From NCBI GenBank assembly GCA_038868995.1, contig JAWCRZ010000002.1, positions 24,726 through 88,725 of the forward strand: DNA of 64,000 nucleotides, in the 5' to 3' direction. The first letter of the stretch is position 1; each line of letters begins with the position of its first letter. The stretch comes from Candidatus Woesearchaeota archaeon. GTDB taxonomy: Archaea; Nanobdellota; Nanobdellia; Woesearchaeales; ARS49. Made by a program: the position numbers and the translations under genes. Shown piece after piece: positions 1 to 64,000 of this stretch. Under the pieces are notes generated by a model, which was not told the DNA's origin, made no database searches, and was given only the letters and a program-made list of their open reading frames with translations.

Positions 1-2
1 GG

Positions 3-146
3 GAGGTTGTTGAGGAAGTGAAAGAGTTCTCAATTGAAGAATTGTATCAGCGTGTTCTTGATGGTGAGTTTGATTTTCTGCATGAGGCATCAGTTATTAT
101 GATGTTGTACCGCGATTGGGAGGCTGGCCGGTTGCGTAATCCTTGA
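3..146 (+). CDS. 3' end of a CDS entering from upstream of the window (C-terminal ~47 aa ...EVVEEVKEFSIEELYQRVLDGEFDFLHEASVIMMLYRDWEAGRLRNP*); product unknown
   Basis: Open frame running from the window edge to a TGA at ~144-146. It converges on and overlaps the 3' end of the minus-strand gene 97..834 by ~50 nt. No recognisable motif. Confidence 0.3.
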   Translation, partial: EVVEEVKEFSIEELYQRVLDGEFDFLHEASVIMMLYRDWEAGRLRNP

Positions 147-834
147 GCACTTCATCGCGTTGAATCCGGTCGTTTGAAAGAACAGGGCTGTTGATGATTA
201 AATTCCATGCAAGCTCTCGTGCTTTTTGCAGTTCCTTGTGGGCGTGCCTGACATTGTGTTCTGCTTCAAAGCTGCTTGCGCCGATAACAAGCTGGGTGAC
301 GTGGTATTTGCCGTTGTCTTTTTCAAGCATCAAATAAAAGGGAATCATTGATTCGTTTCTCCTGCGTGGTATTTTTGGGATGAATTCGCTGTGCTCCATA
401 TCTTTTGGAACAAGGTAATAATGCCCGGTGTCAATGTCAACGACAACGTCTATTCTTCCTTTATATTTTCGGTCAATGAAGTTCTCTATGAGCATGGGAG
501 TTAATCGCTCGACAAGGTTGCGTGGTCCTGTTTTGCTGCATGGCTCAAGTATTCTGTAAAGCAAGCGCACATCTTCAGGAAGTTCTGCGTCGCAGGTGTC
601 GATTTTCATCTTCGCTTTCTGACGAACGCACTCCAATGCCGGCTCGCCGAGATATTGCAGGATTGTTTTTGAAAAACTGAAAAATTCCTCTCCGGAGTGC
701 TCGTATGCAAGCCGTTCAAGCACGCTGCAGGTTTCTTCTGCTTGTCGTGCGGGGGGTGCAGACAATATCCGTTCCATGCATCTTTTGTATGCTTCAGGCA
801 GCTGTGCTGGCTGTACGATGTGGACTTCGACCAT
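97..834 (-). CDS. hypothetical protein, 245 aa, second gene of a two-gene operon
   Basis: Long ORF whose ATG lies 2 nt from the stop of upstream gene 836..1300. No family recognised by eye. Confidence 0.5.
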   Translation of the reverse strand: MVEVHIVQPAQLPEAYKRCMERILSAPPARQAEETCSVLERLAYEHSGEEFFSFSKTILQYLGEPALECVRQKAKMKIDTCDAELPEDVRLLYRILEPCSKTGPRNLVERLTPMLIENFIDRKYKGRIDVVVDIDTGHYYLVPKDMEHSEFIPKIPRRRNESMIPFYLMLEKDNGKYHVTQLVIGASSFEAEHNVRHAHKELQKARELAWNLIINSPVLSNDRIQRDEVLKDYATGQPPNRGTTS

Positions 835-835
835 T

Positions 836-1300
836 TTACACCACCTCTGCCATCATCACTTGGTGCTTGGACGCCAGTGGCATCTCGCTGTCAATAACAA
901 AGGCGTATGCAATGTCGCGGGCTTTGAGCAGTTGTTCATTCGTGTGGTATCTGACCGGTGCCGCGCTTCCGGACATTTTTTTCATTGCATAGGTCATTAC
1001 AAACTCAAATCCTGAAATTCCGACAATGATTCTGGTGACAATGTTGTTCTGAACGCCAATTCCGATGCCGACAAAATGGTTGTATTTCATTGGGTCCTTT
1101 TTCATTTCAGCTTTTGTTTTTCCGGTCAGCAATTCAACAAATTCTGGATGGTCAATGTCTTCAGGAATGGCATACAATTTTCCTTTGTTGACGTCCGCGA
1201 TGAACCTGCCGATTTGTTCTTCGCCTGATCGCTTGGATGTGTAGTCAAGGTCAAATTTTGTCAGCTTTTTGCCGGTAACGTCACGCAACTCGATTGTCAT
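836..1300 (-). CDS. hypothetical protein, 154 aa, first gene of a two-gene operon
   Basis: ORF tightly coupled to 97..834. No recognisable motif. Confidence 0.5.
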   Translation of the reverse strand: MTIELRDVTGKKLTKFDLDYTSKRSGEEQIGRFIADVNKGKLYAIPEDIDHPEFVELLTGKTKAEMKKDPMKYNHFVGIGIGVQNNIVTRIIVGISGFEFVMTYAMKKMSGSAAPVRYHTNEQLLKARDIAYAFVIDSEMPLASKHQVMMAEVV

Positions 1301-1357
1301 TTTTTTATCCCTGAGTGGTAACGAATATACAATTATTTAAAAAACTTACTAATTTTA

Positions 1358-1493
1358 GGTTAAGTCAAGTTTCTGGTGCCGGTTGCTCTGGTCCTCTGGA
1401 CTCATTTTTCTCTCCTCCTCGCAGGTGCGGAGAAGAAAAATGACCTCTGCATAGCGAGGCAGAGCGGCCAGCACCATTAAGTTGGCAGCACCC
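1358..1493 (+). repeat. MITE-like intergenic repeat, copy 1 (reference orientation), ~136 bp
   Basis: Begins ggttaagtcaagtttctggtgc and ends ggccagcaccattaagttggcagcacc (imperfect TIR). Internal palindrome tcatttttctctcctcc...ggagaagaaaaatga. Five more copies occur in the window. Confidence 0.8.
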
Positions 1494-1540
1494 TAATTTT
1501 ATATATTGAAAATTAATAGAATTATGCATTGATAATAGAA

Positions 1541-2812
1541 TTATGCATTGATTATACCGTATCCTATCAGCCGCCATCTTTGCCCTACATTTCTGGACAT
1601 TGTCACCCTTGCGCCTTTGTCAGCGCAGACCGGCTTGCGCAATGCCACTTTTATCAAATTCTTGCCGAGTTCTTTAACAACGCCTACTGTCGCCGCAGAA
1701 TTCACGTTGAGCATGAGCAGTTCTCCCAGCTTTACCGGCTCTACCACTAATTTGTCTTTTGCACCTACAACCCTTTCAAGCAAATGTGTTTCCAGCTGGA
1801 ATTCGTACCAGACCTTTGGTGCATGGCCTTCCAGCACTACCACGCTTCCTGCGAGTTTGTCGCTTTTCACAACGCTGGGGTCAAGGGTTGTCATCGCTGC
1901 TATGCTGCCTCCCGGCACAACTTCTTTCACGCGTTCCCCGCCTGACATGAGAGAAACGACTTTTGTCCTTAACGGCTTCCAGATTTTCTGGTTTTTCTCC
2001 TGAACTTCATATCCTGGAAGTATTTCTATTTCCGCTCCCTCGATAAGCTTTCCCTGCTTCAGGGAACCGCCGAGAATGCCTCCGACCAGTTTGTCCGGAT
2101 ATGTTCCGGGCTTGTTGACGTCAAAGCTTCTTGCCACTAACATTACGGGGTCGGCGTTCACATCGCGATGCGGTGTCTTGAACTTTTCCTGTATTGTCTG
2201 TATGAGAATATCCAGATTAATAGAGTGTATTGCGCTCATTGGGATTATTGGCGCATTCTCGAATTTCGTCCCTTTCAGGAACGCTTTTATCTCGTTATGG
2301 TTTTTCTTTGCCTGTTCTGCTGATACAAGGTCAATCTTGTTCTGCACCACGATAAGGTTGTCAATTCCTACTATTTCAAGCGCCTGCAAATGCTCTCTTG
2401 TCTGTGGCTGGGGGCAGCTTTCTGTTGCGGATATTAGGAGCAATGCACCATCCATTATTGCCGCGCCGCAGAGCATTGTTGCCATCAAGCTTTCGTGGCC
2501 CGGCGCATCAACAAGTGAGACTTTTCTCAGGAATTCCGCTTCGCCGCCACATTTCGGGCATTTTTGCGAGACGCCGTAAGCATCAGAAGCTTCGCATTTT
2601 TTGCACTTGTAAAATGAGACGTCTGCATATCCGAGCCGTATGGTAATGCCTCTTTTTATCTCCTCTGAATGTGTGTCTGTCCATTTGCCAGAAAGTGTTT
2701 GTACAAGGGTTGTCTTGCCGTGGTCCACATGTCCTATCATGCCTATGTTGATTTCCGGCTGTATTTGTGTTTTCGGCGTTTCTTCTGTTTTTGCTTTCTT
2801 TCTGGGAGCCAT
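1541..2812 (-). CDS. eif2g: translation initiation factor aIF2 gamma subunit
   Basis: G1 motif GHVDHGKTTL, DAPGH and NKIDL motifs, the zinc-knuckle CxxC..CxxC insertion typical of a/eIF2-gamma, EF-Tu-like domains II and III. Confidence 0.95.
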   Translation of the reverse strand: MAPRKKAKTEETPKTQIQPEINIGMIGHVDHGKTTLVQTLSGKWTDTHSEEIKRGITIRLGYADVSFYKCKKCEASDAYGVSQKCPKCGGEAEFLRKVSLVDAPGHESLMATMLCGAAIMDGALLLISATESCPQPQTREHLQALEIVGIDNLIVVQNKIDLVSAEQAKKNHNEIKAFLKGTKFENAPIIPMSAIHSINLDILIQTIQEKFKTPHRDVNADPVMLVARSFDVNKPGTYPDKLVGGILGGSLKQGKLIEGAEIEILPGYEVQEKNQKIWKPLRTKVVSLMSGGERVKEVVPGGSIAAMTTLDPSVVKSDKLAGSVVVLEGHAPKVWYEFQLETHLLERVVGAKDKLVVEPVKLGELLMLNVNSAATVGVVKELGKNLIKVALRKPVCADKGARVTMSRNVGQRWRLIGYGIINA

Positions 2813-2845
2813 TATTCGTCGAAATCAAGAAATGGTTTATAAATG

Positions 2846-3367
2846 TTATCTCAGCACGTATGCTCGGCCGTGCATCGTTGTCTCGGCAATTTTTTCCAAT
2901 GCTTCGCGAAGTGCAGCAGGATTTGTTTCTGTCCTGCCTATATATGGAATTTTTTCAAAGCCGATTGTTGATGCGCAGCAAAGTGTGTAATACACGAGCT
3001 GCAGTTCATCTCTTGGTGAAATGTGTTTCGCGTCTTCCGGCTCAGTGAAATGCCCAATGCCAAATCCTGCTATTATTTTCTCCCCTATGCGCTGGTAGCA
3101 TGCGTGCGGAGTGTTGAGAATGTTTGATAAGCGCCTGCGCAGCTTGTTCTCATCAGGATATTTGCTCCATACATCTGCCAATGAGCAGCTCTTGAAAGCG
3201 CTTCCGATATCTATTGTGGCAACATCCGGCTGAGTGTGGATTTCGTAGTAATGCCTTCTTTCATAGCCGGGAATTTCCACAACATTCAGGATTATTTTTT
3301 CAGCCGGCTTTGTCAGGCGCTTAAGCTCTTCCTCTGCACCTTCTACTCTCCAACAGATGTGGCTCAT
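2846..3367 (-). CDS. hypothetical protein, 173 aa, upstream of aIF2-gamma in the same orientation
   Basis: ORF with good coding appearance. It has HxT-like segments (GHFTEPE) but I could not secure a 2H-phosphoesterase or any other assignment. Confidence 0.5.
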   Translation of the reverse strand: MSHICWRVEGAEEELKRLTKPAEKIILNVVEIPGYERRHYYEIHTQPDVATIDIGSAFKSCSLADVWSKYPDENKLRRRLSNILNTPHACYQRIGEKIIAGFGIGHFTEPEDAKHISPRDELQLVYYTLCCASTIGFEKIPYIGRTETNPAALREALEKIAETTMHGRAYVLR

Positions 3368-3416
3368 ATCGGCGAGTTATGTTATTATTTTATTTAAATA
3401 TTTCGAAAATTTACTA

Positions 3417-4853
3417 TTATAAGGTGGTGACTGTCTCCGGTTTTTTTGGCTCCATCTGGAATGTTGTCACCTTGTTTTTTCCCTGTTTTTTCGAGTATCT
3501 TACTCTTCTGTCTGCCGCGTTCATCAGTTCTTCCAGTTTTGTTCCATCCTGCTGCAGAATAGCAACTCCCATGCTAACTGTGACTCTTTCTGGCGCCACT
3601 CCAATGCTTTCCTGCGCTATTGCCTCCCTGAGCGTTTCCGCAAGCGTCACTCCACCAACAGGGCCTGTATTGGGAGCTACTATCATCATTTCCTCGCCGC
3701 CCCACCTGCAGGCAGCGTCGCTCTTTCTTATGTGCTTGCGGGTTATCTCTGCCACTTTCGCGATTACCTTGTCACCCGTCTCCTCTCCGTACTTTTTGTT
3801 GAATGCTCCAAAGTCGTCTATGTCAAACATTATTAAGACAAGGGGTGTTTTTTGGCGGAGCGCAACTGTTATCAGTTCTTGCGCCAATGGGACAAATGCA
3901 TGCCTGTTCAAAAGTCCTGTAAGTGCGTCGTGTGTTGCAAGATGCGATGTTCGCGTTAATGCTATGCGTTGCGCTTTTGCTTCTTTTTGAAGATATTCAA
4001 TTGCTTCCGGCTCGAGCAAATCAGCGTGCTTCAACAGCAAGCTCTGGTAATGCAGGAATTCTTCAGGTGTTGCGATTGTTGTCAAGTCCTTTTCAATGTC
4101 TTGCTTGGTTATTTTTTGGGTAAATATGAGCCATTTTCTTCGCGGCTTTTCATATTTTTCAATGAGCGCTTCAGCCCAGGTTTTCTCTTCGAGCATTGGC
4201 TGGAGACGGTCATAAATCTCTGTTTTTTCCTCAAGTATTGCCTTTTCAAAGCGTCTGGAAGTATCCTTCCATTCAAGCATAAGATGGTCGATGTCAAGTT
4301 GTGTGTCTTTTTTTCTGGTTTCTTCAATGAGGGAGTCAAAGTCCTGTTTCAGCTGGCGCTCGTACTTTATCATTCCCTGGAACAGGCGGATTGCGTCTGC
4401 GAAGTGTTCCAGCACGCTTTCTGCTTTGCCGATTGCATTAAGCTCTTCTTCCTTCTCGCGAAGTATGCCTGCTATTTTTTTTCCTGCCTGTTCTGCCTTG
4501 ATTCCGCCTGCTGCCTGGTCGCGTAGCAGTTCCTCGTATTTGTGCTTTTTTCCTTGTGCAAAATTGTCAAGGGCTTCTTTTTCGGCTGTCACGGATGTGA
4601 AATCCAGGTTGGCAAGCATTTGCCGCACGTGCTGCTCAATCTCATTCAGCAGCAAAAGCACTTTTTGGCGTGCTGCAGGGTCTTCTTTGTTGGCTTGAAG
4701 CGCCTCAACCAGTGCAGCGACTTTTTGTTTGAAAGGATACAGTGCCAGAATTCTTTTTTCAAATGTTTTCAGTACATTTTTTTCTTCCTGCGTGAGTTTC
4801 TGGAACAAGAGCAATGCTGCGTCTGCCATGTTTCCTCTTTTCGGTTGTTTCAA
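3417..4853 (-). CDS. GGDEF-domain protein (diguanylate-cyclase family): N-terminal ~300-aa coiled-coil region plus C-terminal GGDEF domain with GGEEM variant motif and RxxD I-site
   Basis: C-terminal ~165 aa carry DALTGLLNRHAF, FDIDDFGAFNKKYGEETGDKV, RKSDAACRWGGEEMMIVAP and MNAADRRVRYSKKQGKNKV. These match the GGDEF consensus (D.LTGL.NR, DID.FK.IN, RxxD-x3-RxGG[DE]EF, AD.ALY.AK..GRN). Confidence 0.8.
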   Translation of the reverse strand: MKQPKRGNMADAALLLFQKLTQEEKNVLKTFEKRILALYPFKQKVAALVEALQANKEDPAARQKVLLLLNEIEQHVRQMLANLDFTSVTAEKEALDNFAQGKKHKYEELLRDQAAGGIKAEQAGKKIAGILREKEEELNAIGKAESVLEHFADAIRLFQGMIKYERQLKQDFDSLIEETRKKDTQLDIDHLMLEWKDTSRRFEKAILEEKTEIYDRLQPMLEEKTWAEALIEKYEKPRRKWLIFTQKITKQDIEKDLTTIATPEEFLHYQSLLLKHADLLEPEAIEYLQKEAKAQRIALTRTSHLATHDALTGLLNRHAFVPLAQELITVALRQKTPLVLIMFDIDDFGAFNKKYGEETGDKVIAKVAEITRKHIRKSDAACRWGGEEMMIVAPNTGPVGGVTLAETLREAIAQESIGVAPERVTVSMGVAILQQDGTKLEELMNAADRRVRYSKKQGKNKVTTFQMEPKKPETVTTL

Positions 4854-4873
4854 TAAACGGGCAATATAAATCT

Positions 4874-6187
4874 TTACCCTTGCAGCAGCTTTGACACCCA
4901 GTCGATTACCTGGTCAAGTTTCTTTTTGCTGTCTGCATCAGCGTTCAACCTCACGACGTTTTCTGTCTTGCTCAGCCGGAGATTGAACCAGAAATCCTCT
5001 CCGAAGAATGATATTCCATCGACTGTTTCTTTTTTGTATTTTTTGAATGCTTCCTCGACTTTTTTCATGGCTGCCTGCTTGTCTGCCACTTTGTAGTTTA
5101 TTTCTCCTGATATTGAGTATTTCTCAAGCGGCTTTACAAGCTCGCTCATCTTCTTGCCTGATTTTGACAATATGTCCAGCATGAAAAGTGCCGCAACGTC
5201 TCCTGAATCGACAAAATTGAATTTTTTGAAATACCAGTGTCCGCTTAGTTCCCCTCCGAAGTTTGCGTTTTCTTTTTTCATCCGCAATGGTATTTCGGTA
5301 TGCCCCACCATGTTTGGATACGCTTTAATTCCAAATTCCTTCATTTTTTCCCGCACAATTCTGCTCATGTTTGCTGCAAATACCGCTTTGTCGCCTTTTT
5401 TGCACAGATGACGTGCGAAAAGTATGAACGCATGGTCAGACCTTACTCTTCTTCCTTTTTCGTCTATGAAAAATACTCTGTCGCAATCGGCGTCATATGC
5501 TATTCCAATGTCGTATTTTCCGGAAACAACTTGTTTTTGCAGTTCTGCAGTGTTTTCCTCCAGCAATGGGTTTGCAATGTGGTTTGGGAAGCTGCCGTCC
5601 ATCTCGCCGTAAAGGAGCTTGTATTTTATCGGCAGCCCTTTCATCAGTGTCGGCACTACGTGCCCTGCCATTCCATTGCCGCAGTCGATTAGAACTTTTA
5701 ACGGCTTGTATTTTCCATTTACAATTTTTTTCACATATCTTGCGTAATCAGGAAGTATGTTCTTTGCCGTTACTTTTCCTTTTTTCCGTGTGTCAGGGAA
5801 ATGGCATTTGTTCACAAGCTTTTCAATTTGTGGCAGGCCGTTGTGCTCTCCGATTATGTCAACGCCTTTCTTTGCCACTTTGATTCCGTTGTATTCTTTT
5901 GGCAGATGTGATGCTGTTATCATCAAGGCATCGTGCTTAATTGATGCGTAATATATCATTGGAGTGTTGCTGTAGCCCGTGTCTATTACGTCCGCTCCCT
6001 GGTCGGTTATTCCATATACCAATGATTTTTTCAATGGAAGCGAGCTTTTCCTGCAGTCCCTGCCAACCAGTATCTTTTTTGCTTTGAGAAAAATCACCGA
6101 TGCTCGTCCGATTTTATAGGCAAGTTCCTCGTTCAATTCTCCGGGGCACAGTCCTCTGATGTCGTATGCTTTGAAGATACCTGCCAT
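4874..6187 (-). CDS. phosphomannomutase/phosphoglucomutase (alpha-D-phosphohexomutase family)
   Basis: MAGIFKAYDIRG N-terminus, active-site loop TASHLP(KEYNGIK), GEMDG and GGE.SGH motifs. Start trimmed from the 526-aa six-frame ORF to the ATG at 6187, which overlaps the stop of the upstream gene (TAATG). Confidence 0.85.
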   Translation of the reverse strand: MAGIFKAYDIRGLCPGELNEELAYKIGRASVIFLKAKKILVGRDCRKSSLPLKKSLVYGITDQGADVIDTGYSNTPMIYYASIKHDALMITASHLPKEYNGIKVAKKGVDIIGEHNGLPQIEKLVNKCHFPDTRKKGKVTAKNILPDYARYVKKIVNGKYKPLKVLIDCGNGMAGHVVPTLMKGLPIKYKLLYGEMDGSFPNHIANPLLEENTAELQKQVVSGKYDIGIAYDADCDRVFFIDEKGRRVRSDHAFILFARHLCKKGDKAVFAANMSRIVREKMKEFGIKAYPNMVGHTEIPLRMKKENANFGGELSGHWYFKKFNFVDSGDVAALFMLDILSKSGKKMSELVKPLEKYSISGEINYKVADKQAAMKKVEEAFKKYKKETVDGISFFGEDFWFNLRLSKTENVVRLNADADSKKKLDQVIDWVSKLLQG

Positions 6188-6594
6188 TAATGCTCCCTTT
6201 CGCCGAAATGCCTGCACTCGCTGTTCATTATGCCGCTTACTGCGGCGCCTTGCGGGACTTTCTTGTCTGCTGTCAGCAGTACTTTCTTTTTTCCAGCGTG
6301 GGAAATCAGCAGCATTCCCTGGCTTTCCTCTCCTCCGATGAGTTCCGGTTCGATGTTGCAAAGCACCACAACCTGCTTGCCGAGCAGTTCTTCCATTTTG
6401 TACGAGTCGGCAAGGCCCGCAACCACTTGTATGTCCTCGTCCGCTGCTGCGCAATCCACTATGATGATGTATTCTTTCGGGTTTTTTGGATGCGTTTTGA
6501 CTTGTGCTATTGTTCCGACGCGCAACTGCAGTTTTTCAAAGTCCTGATGGGAAATTTTTTTGTAATCGCCGACATCTGTCCGGATTTTCGCCAT
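6187..6594 (-). CDS. tRNA-binding domain protein (Trbp111/CsaA/EMAP-like OB fold)
   Basis: LQLRVGTIAQVKTHPKNPKEYIIIVDCAA..LISHAGKKVLL matches the MetRS C-terminal/Trbp111-type tRNA-binding domain pattern. Confidence 0.65.
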   Translation of the reverse strand: MAKIRTDVGDYKKISHQDFEKLQLRVGTIAQVKTHPKNPKEYIIIVDCAAADEDIQVVAGLADSYKMEELLGKQVVVLCNIEPELIGGEESQGMLLISHAGKKKVLLTADKKVPQGAAVSGIMNSECRHFGEREH

Positions 6595-6651
6595 TGTATC
6601 ACCCTTTCAATTATTTTCTCATTGTGCTGTATAAAAAAGTTTTGCTTGGAT

Positions 6652-6791
6652 GGTGCTGTCAACTAAATGGTGCTGGCCGCTCTGCCTCATCTTCGCAGAG
6701 GTCATTTTTCTCTCCTCCGCATTTGCGAGGAGGAGAGAAAAATGAGTCCGGAGGACCAAAGTGCAGCCAGCACCAGAAACTTGACTTAACC
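6652..6791 (-). repeat. MITE-like intergenic repeat, copy 2 (inverted orientation), full length
   Basis: Reverse complement of copy 1 over ~140 bp, with a perfect internal palindrome tcatttttctctcctcc gca tttgc gaggaggagagaaaaatga. Confidence 0.8.
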
Positions 6792-6827
6792 TGCTTGGAT
6801 AAGTTTTAAATATGGTGTTGCAATAAA

Positions 6828-8117
6828 TTGCTCGCAATGGATAAAAAGAGGTTTTTGTTTGTCAGCGAAGAGGCATTGATTGGGGATTTGGCGTGGCAGG
6901 TGAAAAAGGAGGGCCACCACGTGAAATATTTTATCGGCGAAAAGGCAAGCCGTGACATTTGTGATGGTTTTGTTGACAAGTGTGATGACTGGAAAAAAGA
7001 GATTTCCTGGGCTGACGTGGTTGTTTTTGATGATGTTTTCTACGGCGAGGAAGCTGACAAGCTTAGAAAAGAGGGGAAAGCAGTGGTTGGCGGTTCTGTT
7101 TATACCGACCGTTTGGAAGAGGACCGCGAGTTCGGCCAGCAGGAGCTGAAAAAGGTTGATGTGAATGTTCTACCGCACTGGGACTTTACCGATTTTGACG
7201 AGGCGATAAAGTTTGTTGAGAAAAACCCTGGCAGGTATGTTTTGAAACCTACGTCCAAGTCGGGTGAAAAGGAATTGTTGTTTGTGGGTCAGGAGGAGGA
7301 TGGCAAAGATGTCATCCAGCTTCTTGAGCATTACAAGAAGGCGTGGTCAAAAAAAATTAAGTATTTCCAGATTCAGAAGTATGTTTCCGGCGTTGAGGTT
7401 GCTGTTGGCGCGTTTTTTAATGGCATTGATTTCATCACTCCGATTAATGTCAACTTTGAGCACAAGCGTATGTTTCCAGGCGATATTGGTCCTTCTACCG
7501 GGGAGATGGGAACTTCAATGTACTGGGCGCCCCCAAACAGGATTTTTAGCGAGACGCTTGCAAAGCTTAAACCCGCTCTTCAGCAAGCAGGGTATGTGGG
7601 CTACATAGACCTTAACTGTATAGTGAACAACAAGGGGATTCACCCGTTGGAATTTACGAGCCGTTTCGGCTATCCCACAATAAGTATTCAGATGGAAGGG
7701 ATTGTTTCTCCTTGGGGAGAGTTTTTGCATGCTCTCGCAAACCATAAGCCGTATGATTTGAAGGCGAAAAAGGGATTTCAGGTTGGCATTGTTGTTGCGT
7801 GCCCGCCGTTTCCGTTTTATGACCTTGCCGCGTTCAAGAAGTATGCAGAGGATGCCACTATTCTTTTCAAGAAGCCGGTGTTTGATGGAGTGCGCCTTGG
7901 TGATGTGAAGCTTGTTGAGGGCGACTGGCGTCTTGCCGGCTATTCCGGTTATTGCCTTGTTGTCACCGGTTCGGGCTCTACTATGGAGGAGGCGAGAAAG
8001 CAGGCGTACCAGCGTGTGAAGAATATTATGATTCCGAACATGTTTTACCGCACAGACATCGGCGTGCGCTGGTTTACGGATTCTGACAAATTGCACACGT
8101 GGGGGTATCTTTCATAA
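6828..8117 (+). CDS. PurD-like ATP-grasp enzyme (phosphoribosylamine--glycine ligase family)
   Basis: FEHKRMFPGDIGPSTGEMGTSMYWAPP matches the PurD signature QDHKR..DGD.GPNTGGMGAYSP. Length 429 aa fits. The N-terminus is diverged from the GGREHALAWK consensus. Confidence 0.6.
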   Translation: MLAMDKKRFLFVSEEALIGDLAWQVKKEGHHVKYFIGEKASRDICDGFVDKCDDWKKEISWADVVVFDDVFYGEEADKLRKEGKAVVGGSVYTDRLEEDREFGQQELKKVDVNVLPHWDFTDFDEAIKFVEKNPGRYVLKPTSKSGEKELLFVGQEEDGKDVIQLLEHYKKAWSKKIKYFQIQKYVSGVEVAVGAFFNGIDFITPINVNFEHKRMFPGDIGPSTGEMGTSMYWAPPNRIFSETLAKLKPALQQAGYVGYIDLNCIVNNKGIHPLEFTSRFGYPTISIQMEGIVSPWGEFLHALANHKPYDLKAKKGFQVGIVVACPPFPFYDLAAFKKYAEDATILFKKPVFDGVRLGDVKLVEGDWRLAGYSGYCLVVTGSGSTMEEARKQAYQRVKNIMIPNMFYRTDIGVRWFTDSDKLHTWGYLS

Positions 8118-9007
8118 TGGTCAGTTATACAAGAATGCAGGGAGAGTTGATAAGTTTTGAGACAGCTGACAAGCTGGAGCTTGAGGGGATGCTTTGCGCA
8201 CCAACGCGCTCCAAAACGTGCCTGGTTCACGTGCACGGCATGACTGACAATTTTTTTGGCATCAGCATGGTTGACAACATGATGCACGCTGCTTTCCGAA
8301 ATGAGATGTCTTTTTTCGCGTTTAACAACCGCGGAATGGGCACCATCACGATTTTTCAGAAGCTGAAGGAGCATTTGGTTTTCAGGACGATTGGCACTGC
8401 TTTTGAGAACTTTAAGGACTGCCTTCTTGATATTGATGGCGCGCTGAAGATGCTGCGCGAGCGCGGCTACAGGAATTTTATCCTGTCAGGCCACAGTACT
8501 GGCTGCCAGAAGATTGCTTATTATCAATGGCGCAAGAACAGGAAGTCGGTCAAGGGGCTTATTCTGCTTTCTCCTGCTGATGATTACAACTGGCAGATAA
8601 AGTCGCTGGGCGCGAGAAAGCACAAGGAGACAGTCCAGCTGGCGCGCAAGCTTGTCCGCGCAGGCAGGGGGCGTGAGCTGATGCCTCCTGAGGCAGAACC
8701 GTCTTATTTCAGCGCCAAGCGTTATTATGATTTGTACAGCGGCTCGAGTGTTGAAGCAAAATTGTTCAATTATGAGGGCCCTATGAAGGCGGTGCAGAAG
8801 ATTAAGATTCCTATGCTCGCAGTGCTTGGAGGCAAAGAGGAGTTTGCTGCAATGCCGCCTCGCAGGATGCTGAAGATTCTTGATGGCAAGATGCAGCACC
8901 CTTATTCCCGCACTGTGTTGATAAAGGGAGCTGACCATTGCTTCTGTTTGAAGGAGGAGGAAGCAGAGGCGGCAGTGTCCAAATGGCTTAGAAACCTTCT
9001 CTGGTAG
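8117..9007 (+). CDS. alpha/beta-fold hydrolase
   Basis: Nucleophile elbow GHSTGCQ (GxSxG), with HG and acid/His segments downstream. The ATG at 8117 overlaps the stop of the upstream gene (TAATG). The six-frame ORF began at an alternative GTG at 8099. Confidence 0.65.
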   Translation: MVSYTRMQGELISFETADKLELEGMLCAPTRSKTCLVHVHGMTDNFFGISMVDNMMHAAFRNEMSFFAFNNRGMGTITIFQKLKEHLVFRTIGTAFENFKDCLLDIDGALKMLRERGYRNFILSGHSTGCQKIAYYQWRKNRKSVKGLILLSPADDYNWQIKSLGARKHKETVQLARKLVRAGRGRELMPPEAEPSYFSAKRYYDLYSGSSVEAKLFNYEGPMKAVQKIKIPMLAVLGGKEEFAAMPPRRMLKILDGKMQHPYSRTVLIKGADHCFCLKEEEAEAAVSKWLRNLLW

Positions 9008-9550
9008 TTATTTCCAGCATTGGTAGATGAATGCTGGAGGCATGTTTTCCAGTACAAACTTGTAGGTTGTTTTTTTGAAATGTTTTTTGAGCTGTTTTTC
9101 AAAAATCCTTGAATACTGTATTTGCACAAATGGCCCGTTGAGTTTTTTCTTTGAATTGTTTATGATGCTGCGGACTGTTCGTTCAGGAAGCGTTGTGAGT
9201 GGAAGCGTGCTTATTATGCAATCTGCTTTTTTTATTCCGTATCTGTTAAGAATTTTGTCCGTATGCATGGCATCTCCGTGGATTGCCATCAGCCGGGGGT
9301 CATTGATTTTTTTCAGCTCTGCTGCCAGTGTTTTATTAATCTCTATTGCGTAAAGCTTTGCGTCGGGGTGCATTAATTTGAGTATTTGTCTGGTGACGTT
9401 TCCATGTGCTGCTCCCAACTCAACAATTGTTTTTGCTTTTTTTGCTCCTGCGAGTTCTGCCATTAGCAGGCCGGCTTGCCCGCTCGTTGGTATCATTGTT
9501 GACATTTGTACTGGGTGCTTTACAAACTCGAGTATGAATTTTGCGTTCAT
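9008..9550 (-). CDS. small class I SAM-dependent methyltransferase (COG3963 phospholipid N-methyltransferase-like), paralog A
   Basis: FVKHPVQ..TMIPTSGQAGLLMA N-terminal motif followed by VELGAAHGNVT (SAM motif I) and ...DAKLYAIEIN. Paralogous to 23534..24055. Confidence 0.65.
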   Translation of the reverse strand: MNAKFILEFVKHPVQMSTMIPTSGQAGLLMAELAGAKKAKTIVELGAAHGNVTRQILKLMHPDAKLYAIEINKTLAAELKKINDPRLMAIHGDAMHTDKILNRYGIKKADCIISTLPLTTLPERTVRSIINNSKKKLNGPFVQIQYSRIFEKQLKKHFKKTTYKFVLENMPPAFIYQCWK

Positions 9551-9574
9551 TTCATTTATTTATGTGTAGTGCAT

Positions 9575-10843
9575 TTAATATTTGTTGTTTAAACTTTGCA
9601 GTGGTTGGATTTCTCCAACCAGGAAATATGCTTTCGCCTCTGTTATTTTGACTTTTGCAATTGTTCCCATTGGCAAATCCTGTCTGATTACAATTGGCTT
9701 GTATGCGTAATTTCTTCCCTGTACGCCGTTTTTTACTTTTTCGTCAATAATTATTTCTCCTTGCCAGCCAAGCCATTTTTGGTTCGTATCAAAGGAGATT
9801 TTCTTGTGAAGTTCTGTCAATTTTCTGCTTCTTTCTTTCTTGACATTTCCGTGTATTTGCCCCTGCATTGTTGCTGCTGTTGTTCCAGGCCTTGGTGCAA
9901 AGCGTGCAATGTTTATGATGTCTGGCTTCATCTGTTCCACTAATTTCAGCGTGTCTTCAAACTGCTCTTCTGTCTCAGTCGGATAGCCGACAATGATGTC
10001 CGTGCTTATCGTTATTTCAGGAATTTCCTTTCTCACTGCATTTGCAATTTCAACAAAGGTTTCAACTGTATGCCCCCTTCTCATTGCTTTCAGGACTTCG
10101 TTGTTTCCTGCCTGCACAGGTATGTGCAGGAATTTGAATATTTTTGGGTGTTTCATTATTTCCACAAGTTCGTCGAGATATTTTGGCACGTGCCTCGGGT
10201 TTCCCATGCCAATCCTCACTTTGAAGTCGCCCGGCACTTCAACAATCATCTTCAAGAGCCGCGCCAGGTTTGTCCCTCTGTCAAATCCGTAGCAGCAGGT
10301 GTCCTGTCCTGTTATCCAAATCTCCTTGCAGCCGTCTGCAACACATTTTTCCACTTCCTTCACAATTACATCAGGTGGAAAGCTGAACAGGGGTCCTTTC
10401 ACAAGCCGTGTGCTGCAAAATGCACAAGCATCAAGGCATCCGGAGCTTATCGGCACAATTCCAACAACAGGATTGATTCTTACTCTTGGCAGCAGTAATT
10501 TTACCGGCTTTGCGTGCGTCAGCGCATCTGTTTTCGTGTTCACCAAATTGGAAATGTTGTTAATATGGTGCGTATTAATCAAAATTGCATTTGGGTCAAT
10601 CTGTTTTATCGGCTGGACAATGCTCGGAGTTATGCATCCAGTAATCGCTATTTTCTTGTTTGGATGATTTTTCTTCACCGCTTTAATCTCGTCAAGTGCG
10701 TTTTTGTCTCCTTTTACAGTGCAGATGTTTAAAACAACCATGTCTGCATCTTTTTCTTCAGAAAGTTCTGCAAACTGCCCCTTAATCTGCTCGCCCTCTG
10801 CCATGTTTGCAGAGCAGCCATATGACTTGACGTGGACTTTCAT
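9575..10843 (-). CDS. radical-SAM methylthiotransferase (MiaB/MtaB family; probable archaeal tRNA ms2t6A methylthiotransferase)
   Basis: N-terminal MTTase domain (KSYGCSANMAEGE), radical-SAM cluster SSGCLDACAFCS, C-terminal TRAM-like region. Confidence 0.85.
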   Translation of the reverse strand: MKVHVKSYGCSANMAEGEQIKGQFAELSEEKDADMVVLNICTVKGDKNALDEIKAVKKNHPNKKIAITGCITPSIVQPIKQIDPNAILINTHHINNISNLVNTKTDALTHAKPVKLLLPRVRINPVVGIVPISSGCLDACAFCSTRLVKGPLFSFPPDVIVKEVEKCVADGCKEIWITGQDTCCYGFDRGTNLARLLKMIVEVPGDFKVRIGMGNPRHVPKYLDELVEIMKHPKIFKFLHIPVQAGNNEVLKAMRRGHTVETFVEIANAVRKEIPEITISTDIIVGYPTETEEQFEDTLKLVEQMKPDIINIARFAPRPGTTAATMQGQIHGNVKKERSRKLTELHKKISFDTNQKWLGWQGEIIIDEKVKNGVQGRNYAYKPIVIRQDLPMGTIAKVKITEAKAYFLVGEIQPLQSLNNKY

Positions 10844-10888
10844 GCAAAGAAGTTTCTTATGTCTGCTTTAAAAATATTATCGAGAATT

Positions 10889-11016
10889 GGTGTTTTCAAC
10901 TTAATGGTGCTGGCCGCTCTGCCCAGGCCTTGCCGAAGTCATTTTTCCCTCTCATCTGCATGAGAAAAATGAGTCCAGAGGACCAGAGCAACCGGCACCA
11001 GAAACTTGAGTTAACC
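10889..11016 (-). repeat. MITE-like intergenic repeat, copy 3 (inverted orientation)
   Basis: ggtgttttcaacttaatggtgctggccgctctgcc ... accggcaccagaaacttgagttaacc. Internal hairpin variant tcatttttccctctcat/atgagaaaaatga. Confidence 0.75.
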
Positions 11017-11039
11017 CCATTTTTACGTGGCACACAGCA

Positions 11040-11564
11040 TCAGGCAAGCTCTGAAATTAATTTTGAGGCAAGCGGAGAAGGAATGCCGACAACGCTGGCA
11101 GAGGCGTAATTGCGCATCCTGCGCAAGCGCTGGACAAAATACAACAACTCCCTTGCTGTCAATCCGCCTGACTGCTGGTCAACAATGGAAAGATTAACGC
11201 AGATATGCAACTGCGGCCACTGGTTTGCAGCTTCCATTACTGCATCACAGATATTTGCAATTCCCTCCTGCAAAACAGAGCTTGTCTGGAAAATTTGAAT
11301 GTTTCTCGCTTTCACGAAATCACGCTCTTGACCTGACATTTGGTGGCCACCAAGCAAGATTATGTTGAAATGGCAGAGAGGGCGCAGAAGCTCACCAGTC
11401 GCATCAAAAAGGATGACGCCGGTTTTCCTGTTCGCGAGAAATGAGACGACATCATCTTTTGAGCCGAGCAGTAATTCAGCAGAATCTAATGGAGCCACTT
11501 CGATGTTCGGCATAATTCCCGACTCCTGCAACGGTATGTTAATATCAGGACCAAAATATTTCAT
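11040..11564 (-). CDS. hypothetical protein (~174 aa) downstream of argS
   Basis: ORF with its ATG 1 nt from the argS stop. Weak ureohydrolase-like fragments (LLGGHQMSG, DQQSGGLTARE), but the spacing does not fit the arginase fold, so no assignment. Confidence 0.4.
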   Translation of the reverse strand: MKYFGPDINIPLQESGIMPNIEVAPLDSAELLLGSKDDVVSFLANRKTGVILFDATGELLRPLCHFNIILLGGHQMSGQERDFVKARNIQIFQTSSVLQEGIANICDAVMEAANQWPQLHICVNLSIVDQQSGGLTARELLYFVQRLRRMRNYASASVVGIPSPLASKLISELA

Positions 11565-11565
11565 A

Positions 11566-13239
11566 TCACATCTCGCTTGGAGCTTCAATGCCAAGCAAAC
11601 GCAGACCATTCTCAAGAAGCTGGCGCGATGACTCAATCAAAGTCAGGCGGGCAAGCTGGACATCCTTGTCCTTTTCCTGCGCGCACGGGCACTTGTGATA
11701 AAACTCATTGAAAGCCCTTCCAAACTCTATCAAGTATTGAGCCAGAATATGGGGCTTGTACTGGGCAACAGAATCCTTTATCGCGCACGGAAACTTGGAC
11801 ATCAGCTTAATGACGCGCTGTTCTGACGGGTCCTGCAGCAGGGAAAAATCAGCGTCCTTTGAGGGCTTGCGCTTGACTTTGCGCAATATAGAGGCGGCGC
11901 GTGCGTGCGTGTACATCAAATAAGGACCAGTGTCACCCTCAAAAGAAAGAATACGCTTGATGTCAAACACAACGTCTTTCATCCTGTCATTAAGCAGGTC
12001 GCCGAAAAAAATCGCGCCAACAGCAACCTTTCTGGAAACCTCTTCCTTGTTTTTAAGTTCCGGATTCTTTTCCTCAATTGTTTTTCTTGCAAGCGCAATG
12101 GTTTCAGACAAAACATCCTCCATAAAGACAGTTTTGCCCTCTCGTGTTGACATCTTGCCACCTTCAGAAGTCAGGTACAGGCCATGTGGAACATGAACAA
12201 AATTCTGCTTATGTCCAAGAAGTCGCATTAGGTCAAACAGCTGCCTGAAATGCAATGACTGCTCATGGCCGACAACATACAGAATAGTGTCAAATTTCAG
12301 AACTTCAATTCTGTCAAGCAGGGTTGCCACATCTCGGCTGGCATAAGTAGTGCTTTCATTGCTCTTCTTCAACATCATAGGCATCTCATAACCCTTCAAG
12401 CGAACAATCAAGGCGCCCTTGTCAACCTCTGCAAGGCCTTTTTTCTTTATTAGCTCAATCGCCGCATCAACTTTTGGAGCATAATACGCCTCGCCGTTAT
12501 AGTCGTCAAATTCGACTCCGAGAATCTCATAAATTTTCCTGAACTCGTCCAGAGAATGATGCTTGAACTTGCTCCACAAGGAGAGCGCTTCCTGGTCTCC
12601 CTTTTCCAGCTTCGCAAACCACTCGCGCGCGTAATCAAGAATTTTCTCATTCTTCTCAGCGTGCTCGTTGAACTTGACATACAATTCAACCAAGTGCTTG
12701 ATGGGGCAGATGTCCATCTGCTTCTTGTCGCCCCACTGCAGATAAGCATAGATTAATTTTCCAAACTGAGTGCCCCAGTCGCCCAGATAATTCAGACGGA
12801 TGACTTTGTAGCCAACAAAAGAATGCAGACGGGCAAGCGACTCACCGACAACCGTGCTGCGAAGATGGCCAAAATGCATCGGCTTGCCAATGTTGGGAGA
12901 GGAGTATTCAACCGCGACAACTTTGCCAGCACCCTCATTCGAACTGCCGAACAGCAACTGCCGGTCAAGAATCTCTGAAATAACCGCCTTTGCAACTTTT
13001 GCAGAGTCGAGAAAAAAATTGACATACGGGCCCGTAGCAGTGATTTTTGACACAATGCCGGGCATTGGAATGGACTTTGCAAGAGAATTTGCAATTTCAG
13101 CAGGGCTTTTCTTCATTGATTTTGCCAATTGGAAACATGGAAAAGCATAATCTCCCAAAGACGGGTCTGGAGGGACTTCAAGAACTATGTCACCCTTCAC
13201 CTGCTTTTGCAGCGCCTTGATGATTTCCTTCTCAAACAT
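11566..13239 (-). CDS. argS: arginyl-tRNA synthetase
   Basis: Class I HIGH-type motif SSPNIGKPMHFGHLRS, KMSK-region equivalent GGKMSTREGK, DALRY-type anticodon-binding C-terminus. Start placed at MFEKEII, 14 codons inside the six-frame ORF. Confidence 0.9.
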   Translation of the reverse strand: MFEKEIIKALQKQVKGDIVLEVPPDPSLGDYAFPCFQLAKSMKKSPAEIANSLAKSIPMPGIVSKITATGPYVNFFLDSAKVAKAVISEILDRQLLFGSSNEGAGKVVAVEYSSPNIGKPMHFGHLRSTVVGESLARLHSFVGYKVIRLNYLGDWGTQFGKLIYAYLQWGDKKQMDICPIKHLVELYVKFNEHAEKNEKILDYAREWFAKLEKGDQEALSLWSKFKHHSLDEFRKIYEILGVEFDDYNGEAYYAPKVDAAIELIKKKGLAEVDKGALIVRLKGYEMPMMLKKSNESTTYASRDVATLLDRIEVLKFDTILYVVGHEQSLHFRQLFDLMRLLGHKQNFVHVPHGLYLTSEGGKMSTREGKTVFMEDVLSETIALARKTIEEKNPELKNKEEVSRKVAVGAIFFGDLLNDRMKDVVFDIKRILSFEGDTGPYLMYTHARAASILRKVKRKPSKDADFSLLQDPSEQRVIKLMSKFPCAIKDSVAQYKPHILAQYLIEFGRAFNEFYHKCPCAQEKDKDVQLARLTLIESSRQLLENGLRLLGIEAPSEM

Positions 13240-13448
13240 ACAAAGAATGGATAAACGGCAATTTATAAAAGTTCTGCACAAACGGTTCCATCAAATTAAA
13301 TGACAATGTTGCCGTTGCTCAGGTTCCAGGGACTGATTTTCCCCACGTAAGTTGAGAAGCCTAAGGCAAGCTTGGGCAAAGCGGCTTAGACACAAAACTT
13401 GACAGCACCTGCACAAATGATTTATACTTCAATATATTTTCTGCCGGT

Positions 13449-13766
13449 ATGAACAAAAAAGGCATTCTCTGGCCAAGCATTCTCGCGCTTGTTGGGTTTA
13501 TCTTGTTTGCAGTCATCCTCATCACTCTTTTTTTGGTGCCCCTGATAGTTGTCGGTGCAAACATAATAATCTTGTACTTTTTCTTCCTGCGCATATACAC
13601 AGAAATAACAAAGTACAAAAGAGGCGACATTTACGCATACAGCTTTATCGCAGCGGCACTCATTGTCGTCATTTTCAAGAATTTCCTGCCGCTTTGGTGG
13701 ATAACAACAGTAACAATACTGGCTTTCATAATCGCGCAAATATATATTATGATGAAAAAACGCTAA
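13449..13766 (+). CDS. small integral membrane protein (3 predicted TM helices)
   Basis: 105-aa ORF, strongly hydrophobic, no motif. Confidence 0.5.
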   Translation: MNKKGILWPSILALVGFILFAVILITLFLVPLIVVGANIIILYFFFLRIYTEITKYKRGDIYAYSFIAAALIVVIFKNFLPLWWITTVTILAFIIAQIYIMMKKR

Positions 13767-14098
13767 AACTGCCTTTCAATTTCTTTAAGCGCAGCATCAA
13801 CTCCAAAGAAAACGTTCGAATGCGTTGCCGAGGAAGTAAACGTGCTTCCCTGCGCGACCGCCTCAATCCTTATATCCGGATGGGCAAACGAAATTGACAA
13901 TTTTTCCAGCCCTTTATCTGAGAATTTGCGGGCATAGGTCCCGATTATCTTCTTCAGAACAATCATTGTGGCGTGGTCTATGCCTTCCACGCCATACAGC
14001 TCGATGTTGCCGCCGAGCCGCACTGCATCATCCATAATAAAGACATTAACCAGAATTAAGTTTTTAATTTTTTCCAAAAAGGGATGCCAACCAGTCAT
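13763..14098 (-). CDS. hypothetical protein, 111 aa
   Basis: ORF with plausible coding statistics. Family not recognised. Confidence 0.45.
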   Translation of the reverse strand: MTGWHPFLEKIKNLILVNVFIMDDAVRLGGNIELYGVEGIDHATMIVLKKIIGTYARKFSDKGLEKLSISFAHPDIRIEAVAQGSTFTSSATHSNVFFGVDAALKEIERQF

Positions 14099-14166
14099 TA
14101 CTCTTTAGTAACTTCAACAGCGAAAATCTTTTAAACAGATGACCTATTGCGCATATGGGGGAGATA

Positions 14167-14295
14167 ATGATTAAATGCCAACGATGCGGCACAGCCGTGC
14201 GATCATACAGCCCAATGCGCAAATGGTGCGTTGACTGCAGGCGCGTCATCTCCCTTGAGCAGGCAAAAGAAAGAAAGCTTGCGGCCAAGAATTAA
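14167..14295 (+). CDS. small zinc-ribbon protein (42 aa, CxxC...CxxC)
   Basis: MIKCQRCGTAVRSYSPMRKWCVDCRRVISLEQAKERKLAAKN. Absent from the ORF track because it is shorter than 60 aa. Confidence 0.35.
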   Translation: MIKCQRCGTAVRSYSPMRKWCVDCRRVISLEQAKERKLAAKN

Positions 14296-14410
14296 GAAAA
14301 AATTGCTTCTTGTTCAAATTCGAAAAGCTTCAATTCGCTGACTTTTTTCGGCAACCGAAGCAAAACTCTTCTCTCATCCTCACAATGCCACAAAACAAGG
14401 CAATTCTCGA

Positions 14411-14450
14411 GGTTAAGTCAAGTTTCTGGTGCTGGTTGCTTTGGTGGCTC
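14411..14450 (+). repeat. MITE-like repeat, truncated copy 4 (5' ~40 nt only)
   Basis: ggttaagtcaagtttctggtgctggttgctttggtgg, then diverges. Confidence 0.6.
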
Positions 14451-14645
14451 TGATGCAATTCTTGTGTGGCAAGCCGTATCTGCCTGGCTTTATTCTTACT
14501 GCCTTGAACGCTCTTGCTGCGTTTGTTGGCAGGGCTTTGTCTGGCTGATTTACAGCAACCTGTCGCCAAATTCGTATTTTGCGGAGGTATCGAAATGCCC
14601 TTTCATTTCGAAACTTTTTTAAATCCCCTTCACGTCGGTAGCGCT

Positions 14646-14837
14646 ATGGGTAGAATAAAGACGCAGTTAATCAAACGTCTCACGTTTGAGATTATGAAGC
14701 AGCGTGAAAAACTCTCGCCTCAGTTTGAGGAGAACAAGAAGGTTGTAGCAGAGCTTCTGGGCGGCGCGAGCAAAAAAATCAGGAATAGTGTTGCGGGCTA
14801 CGTGACCCGGTTGATGAAGATAAAGGAAGAATACTAA
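14646..14837 (+). CDS. rps17e: 30S ribosomal protein S17e
   Basis: MGRIKTQLIKRLTFEIMKQ...FEENKKVVAELL...NSVAGYVTRLMK matches the archaeal S17e consensus (MG.IR...IKR.A..L...FE.NKK.V......RN.IAGYVTR). Start moved to the internal ATG. Confidence 0.85.
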   Translation: MGRIKTQLIKRLTFEIMKQREKLSPQFEENKKVVAELLGGASKKIRNSVAGYVTRLMKIKEEY

Positions 14838-14859
14838 GTGACTGCCTTGGGGGTGACTT

Positions 14860-15141
14860 ATGGCAGACGACAACAGTATTTTCATCGGGAACAAGCCGTT
14901 TATGAATTACGTTACAGGCGTTGTCATGCAGTTTACAACACAGCAGGCCTCTGAAGTTATTATAAAAGCGCGTGGGAAATTCATCTCAAGGGCTGTTGAC
15001 GTTGCAGAGGTTGCTTCAAAGCGTTTTCTTGACAATGGCGTTTCAGTGCGGGACATCCGCATAAATTCTGAGGAGTTTACTAACAAGGAAGGCAGGAATG
15101 TGAGGGTTTCCACTATTGAGATTTCCCTTAAGAAATTGTAA
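14860..15141 (+). CDS. albA: DNA/RNA-binding protein Alba
   Basis: IFIGNKPFMNYVTGVVMQF...EVIIKARGKFISRAVDVAEV...RNVRVSTIEISLKK is the classical Alba signature. Confidence 0.9.
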   Translation: MADDNSIFIGNKPFMNYVTGVVMQFTTQQASEVIIKARGKFISRAVDVAEVASKRFLDNGVSVRDIRINSEEFTNKEGRNVRVSTIEISLKKL

Positions 15142-15279
15142 GGTTAAGTCAAGTTTCTAATGCTAACTTGCCGCCTTGGTCCTCTGGACTCATTTTCCCT
15201 CCTCGCAGACTGGAAGAGAGAAAAAATGACCTCGGCAAGGCCTGGGCAGAGTGGCCAGCATTATTAAGTTGACAGCACC
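15142..15279 (+). repeat. MITE-like intergenic repeat, copy 5 (reference orientation), full length
   Basis: ggttaagtcaagtttctaatgc ... ggccagcattattaagttgacagcacc. Hairpin variant ctcattttccctcctcgca/ggaagagagaaaaaatgac. Confidence 0.8.
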
Positions 15280-15350
15280 AAAACATAGCAACTTTTTTAA
15301 ATGAAAAATTGTTCCTATAATCTATGCGGTTATAAAAGGGCTGATTATTA

Positions 15351-24111: not shown

Positions 24112-24226
24112 GGGCGTGTAGTCTAGTGGATAGGACGTTGGGCTTCGGTCAGCAGCTGCTATGAAGGCCTCTGAGCAATCTGTTGCAGGATACCCAAAAA
24201 CCGGGGTTCAAATCCTCGCACGCCCG
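24112..24226 (+). tRNA. tRNA-Arg (anticodon UCG) with a 43-nt intron (24149..24191) at the canonical 37/38 position; CCA not encoded
   Basis: Manual cloverleaf. Acceptor GGGCGTG/CACGCCC. D-arm GTCT-AGTGGATA-GGAC. Anticodon stem TTGGG/CCCAA, loop CTTCGG|intron|A. T-arm CGGGG-TTCAAAT-CCTCG. Discriminator G, followed by a T-run. Confidence 0.7.
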
Positions 24227-63914: not shown

Positions 63915-64000
63915 GGTTAAGTCAACTCTCTGGTGCTGGCCGCGCTGCCTCGACGTTGTCGAGGTGACTTTTCTCTCCCCGCACTTGCAAGGGGGAGAAG
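63915..64000 (-). repeat. MITE-like intergenic repeat, copy 6 (inverted orientation), truncated by the window edge
   Basis: ggttaagtcaactctctggtgctggccgcgctgcctc... aligns to copy 2. The internal hairpin arms carry compensatory changes (ttttctctcccc / gggggagaag). Confidence 0.7.

Follow-up and report, generated by a model that had tools for sequence, protein, structure and literature searches.

What is the short repeat that recurs between the genes of one stretch of a woesearchaeal genome, and is it kept there by the host or is it a mobile element? The stretch in question (the window) comprises 64,000 nucleotides from Candidatus Woesearchaeota archaeon (GenBank assembly GCA_038868995.1, contig JAWCRZ010000002.1, positions 24,726 to 88,725), and the repeat is a unit of about 135 bp. 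An earlier reading of the same DNA made without database searches (the sequence-only reading) had offered two answers, that the repeat is a non-autonomous transposable element or that it is a structured RNA or terminator module. The evidence favours the first of these, and we put the probability that the repeats are a family of transposable elements of the miniature inverted-repeat kind (MITEs) at about 90%. Small size without coding capacity, terminal inverted repeats, a target duplication of fixed length and a filled site that can be set beside an empty one are all found in this family.

All six copies listed in the sequence-only reading are present, with the ends of c1 and c4 refined (Table 1), although the count was one short, as a decayed copy, c7, had been overlooked. 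The search used an nhmmer profile built from the four full copies (c1, c2, c3 and c5), which give E-values of 1e-39 to 2.5e-41 against their own profile. A covariance model recovers all seven copies, as nhmmer did; the nhmmer match to c7 began at about 13289 and its boundaries were refined to those in Table 1. Repeat detection also groups the copies, into families of direct and of inverted repeats. Forward is used for the orientation that starts GGTTAAGTCAAGTTTCTGGTGC (the A end) and finishes with GCACCATTAAGTTGRCAGCACC (the B end), and the strand given in Table 1 is the one on which each copy is forward. The termini, which can be abbreviated as GGTTAAGTCAAG... and GGTGCTGYCAAC..., form inverted repeats of some 22-24 bp (GGTTAAGTCAAGTTTCTGGTGC and GGTGCTGYCAACTWAATGGTGC), with the ends of about 22 nt pairing with each other in every intact copy. 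Imperfect inverted-repeat ends around a central hairpin had been described from the outset, and that description holds, with the hairpin reaching 17 bp.

The full copies are 128-140 nt long and differ from one another by indels of 2, 4 and 10 nt, which excludes a shared reading frame. No conserved open reading frame (ORF) was found in the copies, in agreement with the earlier statement that none of them encodes a protein. In c3 the apex of the central hairpin is rearranged, and in c6 the visible terminus is GGTTAAGTCAAC, which is A-end-like yet lies on the B side. The stretch 14411-14558, tried as an extended form of c4, has no fold (z +0.7), and c4 is therefore kept as a fragment. The copies are clustered: the first 15.3 kb hold six of the seven, and from there to 63.9 kb there is none. 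Seven copies per 64 kb correspond to about 109 per Mb locally, so the family is indeed dense, as had been claimed, but not without precedent, since a 2024 census of 8220 archaeal genomes found the highest archaeal MITE densities in DPANN, with 105 per Mb in one Woesearchaeal genome (PMC11602168).

Table 1. Copies of the repeat, the parts of copy c1, target-site duplications and promoter-like motifs (positions in the window).
Feature	Position	Strand	Description
c1	1358-1492	+	full length, 135 nt; nhmmer E 4.5e-41; covariance model 142 bits
c1, left arm	1358-1390		terminal inverted repeat and inner stem
c1, P2	1391-1401		small hairpin
c1, P3	1402-1443		long central hairpin
c1, P4	1444-1459		hairpin
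c1, right arm	1460-1492		
c2	6652-6791	-	full length, 140 nt; perfect 17-bp central hairpin; nhmmer E 2.5e-41
c3	10889-11016	-	full length, 128 nt; nhmmer E 1.2e-39; covariance model 138 bits
c4	14411-14446	+	fragment, 36 nt, first part of the A end only; nhmmer E 2e-6
c5	15142-15279	+	full length, 138 nt; nhmmer E 8.7e-41
c6	63915-64000	-	cut by the window end; nhmmer E 9.3e-11; covariance model 34.8 bits
c7	13284-13409	+	decayed full-length copy; nhmmer E 3.9e-6; covariance model E 0.017
c1 duplication	1349-1357 and 1493-1501		CTAATTTTA on both sides, 9/9
c2 duplication	6643-6651 and 6792-6800		TGCTTGGAT on both sides, 9/9
c7 duplication	13275-13283 and 13410-13418		TGCACAAAC and TGCACAAAT, 8/9
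BRE/TATA-like motifs at seven junctions			TAAGTTTTTTAAAT, AAACTTTTTTATAC, AAGTTTTAAATATG, TAATATTTTTAAAG, CAACTTTTTTAAATG, GAACTTTTATAAATTG, GATTTATACTTC

Evidence for transposition lies immediately outside the repeats. Target-site duplications, which the sequence-only reading had named as something to look for at the copy boundaries, are found at c1, c2 and c7, in each case 9 bp long, and the three duplicated sequences are mutually unrelated. For c2 the site can also be seen without the element. On the reverse strand of the window the filled site reads ATATTTAAAACTT-ATCCAAGCA-(140-nt element)-ATCCAAGCA-AAACTTTTTTATA, and in a contig of a related Woesearchaeote, L007, the same conserved flanks, ATATTTAAAACTT and AAACTTTTTTATA, enclose a single 9-mer (ATATTTAAAACTT-CTTAAGACA-AAACTTTTTTATA), so that the filled site is longer by precisely the element and 9 bp. 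For c3 the window has (element)-AATTCTCGA-TAATATTTTTAAAG...ATGAAAGTCCACG and L007 has AATTCTCGG-TAATCTTTAAAAAC...ATGAAAGTACACG, that is, a single target copy beside the same MtaB promoter, in an alignment that extends over the MtaB-side flank only. Filled and empty sites are in both cases compared between species.

The same duplications bear on what kind of enzyme could have moved the repeats. Strong hairpin potential on both strands and an intergenic location are also what is seen in palindromic repeats that depend on a single-strand (HUH) transposase for their movement, for example REP/REPIN sequences or the PATEs derived from IS200/IS605. Elements of that kind insert without target duplication and carry subterminal hairpins, not terminal inverted repeats. 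Given 9-bp duplications at three sites, inverted repeats at the very ends and a difference of element plus 9 bp between c2 and L007, an origin of this sort is very improbable.

Not every copy has been left as it was inserted. The flank of c3 on its B side (10880-10888) is TCGAGAATT, and its other flank is unlike it. The left flank of c4 (14402-14410) is AATTCTCGA, the reverse complement of that c3 flank 3.4 kb away, and this 9-mer, shared in inverted orientation, occurs at only these two places in the window. The c3 and c4 flanks look like the two halves of a single duplication, made by one insertion, that recombination or inversion has moved apart, an arrangement that would be the outcome of recombination between inverted copies and then deletion in c4. 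Identity between copies is also mosaic: it is 98% (A half) and 81% (B half) for c1 and c3, and 74% (A half) and 89% (B half) for c3 and c5. From the split duplication and the mosaic identity it follows that the copies have recombined. The repeats also account for assembly breaks in this organism: a 5.3-kb Logan contig of the region stops inside c1 and inside c2, as a short-read assembler breaks at the repeat. A separate observation concerns the DNA to the left of c4, where about 300 nt (14099-14401) have stops in all three minus-strand frames, which is unusually long for such a compact genome; this stretch may be left over from the rearrangement by which the c3/c4 duplication was split.

Relatives of the host give some idea of how far the element extends. 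The aIF2-gamma of the window is 78-88% identical to that of metagenome-assembled genomes (MAGs) labelled Woesearchaeota, Nanoarchaeota or Nanoarchaeia; some matches carry other labels, apparently from automated submission. L007 is at 88%, and the gene order around aIF2-gamma is conserved in L007 and L011. In a second Woesearchaeote, L010 (LFW-252_3), aIF2-gamma is 81% identical and the covariance model finds three diverged relatives of the element within 18 kb; in the closer relatives L007, L008 and L011, of which roughly 20 kb apiece was searched in the same way, it found none, and no member of the family turned up in the other fetched loci with a core-only nhmmer profile that took in the L010 relatives. 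The L010 relatives at 2563-2700 and 13527-13660 keep the three-hairpin core and lack the terminal 22-mers of the window family. One L010 relative lies at the identical point beside the orthologous purD promoter, that is, at the c2 site. The site orthologous to c2 in L011 holds an unrelated insert of about 300 nt (3740-4045) with a GC-rich core of about 120 nt and a strong fold (-68 kcal/mol for 160 nt). The core is 74% identical (E 3.5e-13) to a different L010 locus (17078-17193); the insert has no Rfam match and no homologue in the window, and may be either a small RNA not yet described or a different mobile element. With three lineages carrying three different inserts at one site, gaps between promoters are flagged as insertion hot spots.

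Within the window, gene context was taken from ORF lists and Pfam. The sequence-only reading had placed the copies usually right after a stop codon. This is so for c5, which begins immediately at the end of the Alba stop codon, for c6, 8 nt after the stop of the 62902-63906 gene, and more loosely for c1, which lies 48 nt beyond the stop of aIF2-gamma, upstream of where the next gene starts. It is not so for the copies that lie between divergent promoters, namely c2, between a tRNA-binding-domain gene (6187-6594, minus strand) and a purD-like gene (6837-8117, plus strand), and c7, between ArgRS and the plus-strand ORF beginning at 13449. Nor does any copy follow the stop of MtaB, as had been thought: c3 precedes the start of the MtaB/MiaB-like gene (10843), and the adjoining stop, 24 nt away, is that of an arginase-like ORF (11040).

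Two further features stand beside these copies. At 1517-1554, 24 nt from c1, a 19-nt tandem duplication (TAGAATTATGCATTGATAA and TAGAATTATGCATTGATTA, 18/19) covers the last codons and stop of aIF2-gamma; it could be the footprint of an excised element, or the result of replication slippage. The arginase-family ORF beside c3 (11040-11636, minus strand, 198 aa) matches only positions 150-256 of the 280 in the profile and overlaps the end of the ArgRS ORF, and may be a truncated or frameshifted gene.

Copies that sit just after stop codons bring to mind the attC sites found at the 3' ends of integron gene cassettes, all the more as the size range, the imperfect palindromes and the A-end GTTAAGT, which fits the core GTTRRRY, would be in keeping with such sites. 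Integrons have been reported in archaeal MAGs. Sites of the attC type are found in one orientation at cassette 3' ends, in an array beside intI, and have no target duplication. The repeats of the window occur in both orientations, two of them between divergent promoters, and have 9-bp duplications; their flanks are housekeeping genes (aIF2-gamma, ArgRS, S17e, Alba, purD) in an order conserved in relatives, and there is no integrase among the roughly 48 ORFs of the window. An attC origin is the least credible of the alternatives considered, with a probability that is close to nil. The features that define attC sites, REP/REPIN sequences and PATEs, or any Rfam family, are not those of this repeat.

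A more serious case for a function in the host comes from the fold. Whether taken as RNA or as single-stranded DNA, the intact copies all form one and the same four-way junction, with a long closing stem made of the two arms, a 4-bp hairpin (GTCC-TCT-GGAC), a central hairpin (TCATTTTTCTCTCC...GGAGAGAAAAATGA) and a third hairpin. Fold z-scores are mostly -4 to -8 (c1, -65.1 kcal/mol and z -5.4; c2, z -7.8), with a weaker fold in c5 (RNA z -1.6 on the forward and -3.8 on the reverse strand; DNA -2.4). In the outer stem, 17/17 pairs are canonical in c1 and 16/17 in c2, c3 and c5. Over the forward rows of the model alignment, which holds few, related sequences and had been fitted to the structure, canonical pairs fill 91.8% of pair cells, compared with 36-51% when the partners are slid, and 18 of 45 pairs have changed on both sides; c5 gives an example, with GG to AA in the left arm and CC to TT in the right. 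The observed percent paired, double-sided changes and covariation score were reached by none of 500 shuffles, and the number of extra pair types by 6 of 500. When the core sequences are aligned with MAFFT the central hairpin comes out of register.

It is worth asking whether the repeat is a host-selected structured RNA, or a terminator or insulator, that was spread by transposition and is kept in 3' untranslated regions or between packed genes. The shared junction, the high proportion of canonical pairs and the double-sided changes all speak for this, as do two L010 elements that stood outside model building and fold on their own into the same junction (z -4.9 and -5.9) with different stem sequences. 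Most copies also have a T5 tract on whichever strand is read. This tract, which could serve as an archaeal terminator, is down to T4 or T3 in c5, c6 and the copies of L010, however, and c7, which is decaying neutrally, has lost the fold altogether (z -0.7). Relative to read-through transcription two copies are forward (c3, c5), two are reverse (c1, c6) and two lie between divergent promoters (c2, c7). Rfam has no match at gathering thresholds, and at E up to 5 the sole match in positions 1-16000 is a chance microRNA of 21 bits. DNA parameters give an equally good fold, and in quasi-palindromes compensatory changes can arise by intrastrand template switching without selection. Because of the mixed orientation, the shrinking T tract, the loss of the fold in c7, the lack of an Rfam match and the scope for template switching, the four-way junction is treated as a property of the element family and not as evidence of host function. 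The fold noticed in the sequence-only reading is real and conserved; the role of host RNA or terminator that was proposed with it is improbable.

A different kind of pattern is seen where the copies face genes. Wherever a junction in the window looks towards a downstream gene start (7/7), a BRE/TATA-like motif of the form AAC/AAG-TTTTTTAAAT comes directly after the 9-nt duplication. Only at c1 and c3 is there room for the element to have inserted elsewhere; as the intergenic gaps are so tiny, survivorship accounts for most of this pattern. Promoter-edge targeting is put forward here as a hypothesis, and it seems rather unlikely that the element inserts by preference at the upstream edge of promoters, that its four-way-junction core is selected (as a DNA junction for transposition, or as an RNA or DNA insulator where transcription units are closely packed), or both. 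If true, a DPANN archaeon would have a MITE that targets promoters, with a loose parallel in the promoter-targeting transposons of eukaryotes.

How would such a MITE be mobilised? A DDE-type transposase encoded elsewhere, and thus acting in trans, may bind the terminal inverted repeats and make a 9-bp staggered cut in the target, the repair of which would give the 9-bp direct duplication. Later recombination among copies has produced the split duplication, the mosaic identity and the one truncated copy, with at least one copy decaying, and what maintains the fold is either selection acting on the element or the template-switch correction of quasi-palindromes.

The transposase itself would possibly be of the IS1 family. 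The ends of Escherichia coli IS1A, read from the chromosome record, are GGTGATGCTGCCAACTTACTGAT and GGTAATGACTCCAACTTATTGAT. The B end of c1, GGTGCTGCCAACTTAATGGTGCTG, shares TGCTGCCAACTTA[A/C]TG with the IS1A left repeat (15/16 bases, a score reached by 0 of 5000 shuffles, p<2e-4). This one match, for which the B end can be written GGTGCTGCCAACTTAATG, needs a shift of 3 nt from the tip. Members of the IS1 family make target duplications of 8-9 bp (ISfinder), a range that takes in the 9 bp seen here. Their ends have the form GGnnnTG (ISfinder), which the MITE terminus GGTGCTG fits. An ISAba3-like repeat of this family has been published, GGTGGTGTTTCAAAAAGTATGCTG, together with an example of an 8-bp target duplication (PMC6382973). 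It has a GGTG.TGT start and TGCTG at positions 20-24 in common with the MITE B end, although overall most copy ends score no better than chance against it in local alignment (p 0.02 to 0.46). Among other insertion sequences, the ends of IS903, IS26, IS10 and IS50 score at chance level against the MITE ends. All 27 insertion-sequence families of ISEScan have been reported in Nanobdellota in a 2026 survey (PMC13343696). The differences from IS1 are that the A end of the MITE (GGTTAAG...) does not match, that the host is a DPANN archaeon and that no IS1-type transposase was found, with tblastn of E. coli InsAB' giving no match in the window or in any of the fetched loci. Taken together an IS1-family origin is a lead and not a result, drawn from one end of the element, and we hold it to be slightly less probable than some other origin.

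Several observations weigh against a MITE, or at least against the simplest form of one. An autonomous element with matching ends, or a transposase gene bounded by such ends, was found neither in the window nor in 1.29 Mb of fetched loci, which are a small sample. Pfam scans of the window ORFs, which are housekeeping genes, a glycosylation cluster and signalling proteins, detected no transposase, and a fuzzy search of the 1.29 Mb for both termini (up to 5 mismatches) returned only the window copies and chance metagenome matches. Nothing was found by an exact 22-mer scan of GTDB representative genomes, by two such scans of IMG/VR or by blastn against plasmid and phage collections. A scan of JGI metagenomes gave five near-identical contigs, which were taken as chance matches after one of them (L003) was read and showed a 22-mer with one substitution and no homology beyond it. 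The A end of the MITE scores at chance level against the ends of IS1. The flanks of c5 are without a duplication (AAATTGTAA and AAAACATAG), and around the L010 relatives the direct repeats measure 16 nt (AAATTCTTGAAGTGAA) and 10 nt or more (CTGAATACGT) instead of 9, and take in the stop codon of the upstream gene. Finally, the organism is known from one sequencing run, SRR27730035, the only one in which its exact proteins (aIF2-gamma, Alba and the tRNA-binding protein) were found, so that insertions can be compared with other species only. Set against these points, the 9-bp duplications at c1, c2 and c7, the empty c2 site and the lack of any ORF still support the non-autonomous transposable element that the sequence-only reading had suggested.

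The window also holds some genes that are of interest apart from the repeats. A 478-aa protein (3417-4853, minus strand), conserved at 59-74% identity in L007, L008 and L011, contains a strong GGDEF diguanylate-cyclase domain (126 bits, E 1e-36); cyclic-di-GMP signalling domains are uncommon in archaea. In an 1125-aa protein (32251-35628, minus strand) an adenylate/guanylate cyclase domain is found together with an AAA_16 (STAND-like) ATPase and TPR repeats, a signalling architecture that is unusual in a small DPANN genome. At 24112-24226 (plus strand) Rfam places a tRNA of 115 nt (55.6 bits) for which ARAGORN has no call; it is presumably an archaeal tRNA with an intron. A 115-nt direct repeat (17204-17318 and 17423-17537, 71% identity) lies within a 733-aa ORF (15351-17552) that has no Pfam match, and probably represents a repeated segment within a surface protein.

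It remains to place the family among known systems. Like the window family, Correia/NEMIS, ERIC, RUP and BOX are short intergenic repeats with inverted-repeat ends; their transcripts can fold stably, and effects at the RNA level have been shown for them experimentally; the window family has no sequence relationship with them and is known here from sequence alone. The SM1-SM4 elements of Sulfolobus are prokaryotic MITEs. A full-text literature search found no paper that joins Woesearchaeota with miniature inverted-repeat elements, and the family is not described in the texts of the archaeal census (PMC11602168) or the Nanobdellota survey (PMC13343696), with the MITE sequence lists of the census lying outside this comparison. 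What sets the window family apart from known MITEs is that it matches nothing in the collections searched, that its parent insertion sequence was not found and that its interior is a three-hairpin junction and not a simple foldback. Our knowledge of how MITEs work is unchanged by it, and it is best seen as ordinary but well-documented selfish DNA in a tiny DPANN genome, a clean sequence-level case of recent transposition in a lineage whose mobile elements are mostly known from automated censuses. With the prokaryotic MITEs, among them MITEAba12 (PMC6382973) and those of the archaeal census (PMC11602168), it shares a length of about 130 bp, terminal inverted repeats, a target duplication of fixed length (also 9 bp in MITEAba12, PMC6382973), the lack of an ORF, an intergenic location, multiple copies in both orientations, restriction to a lineage and the potential to form long hairpins.

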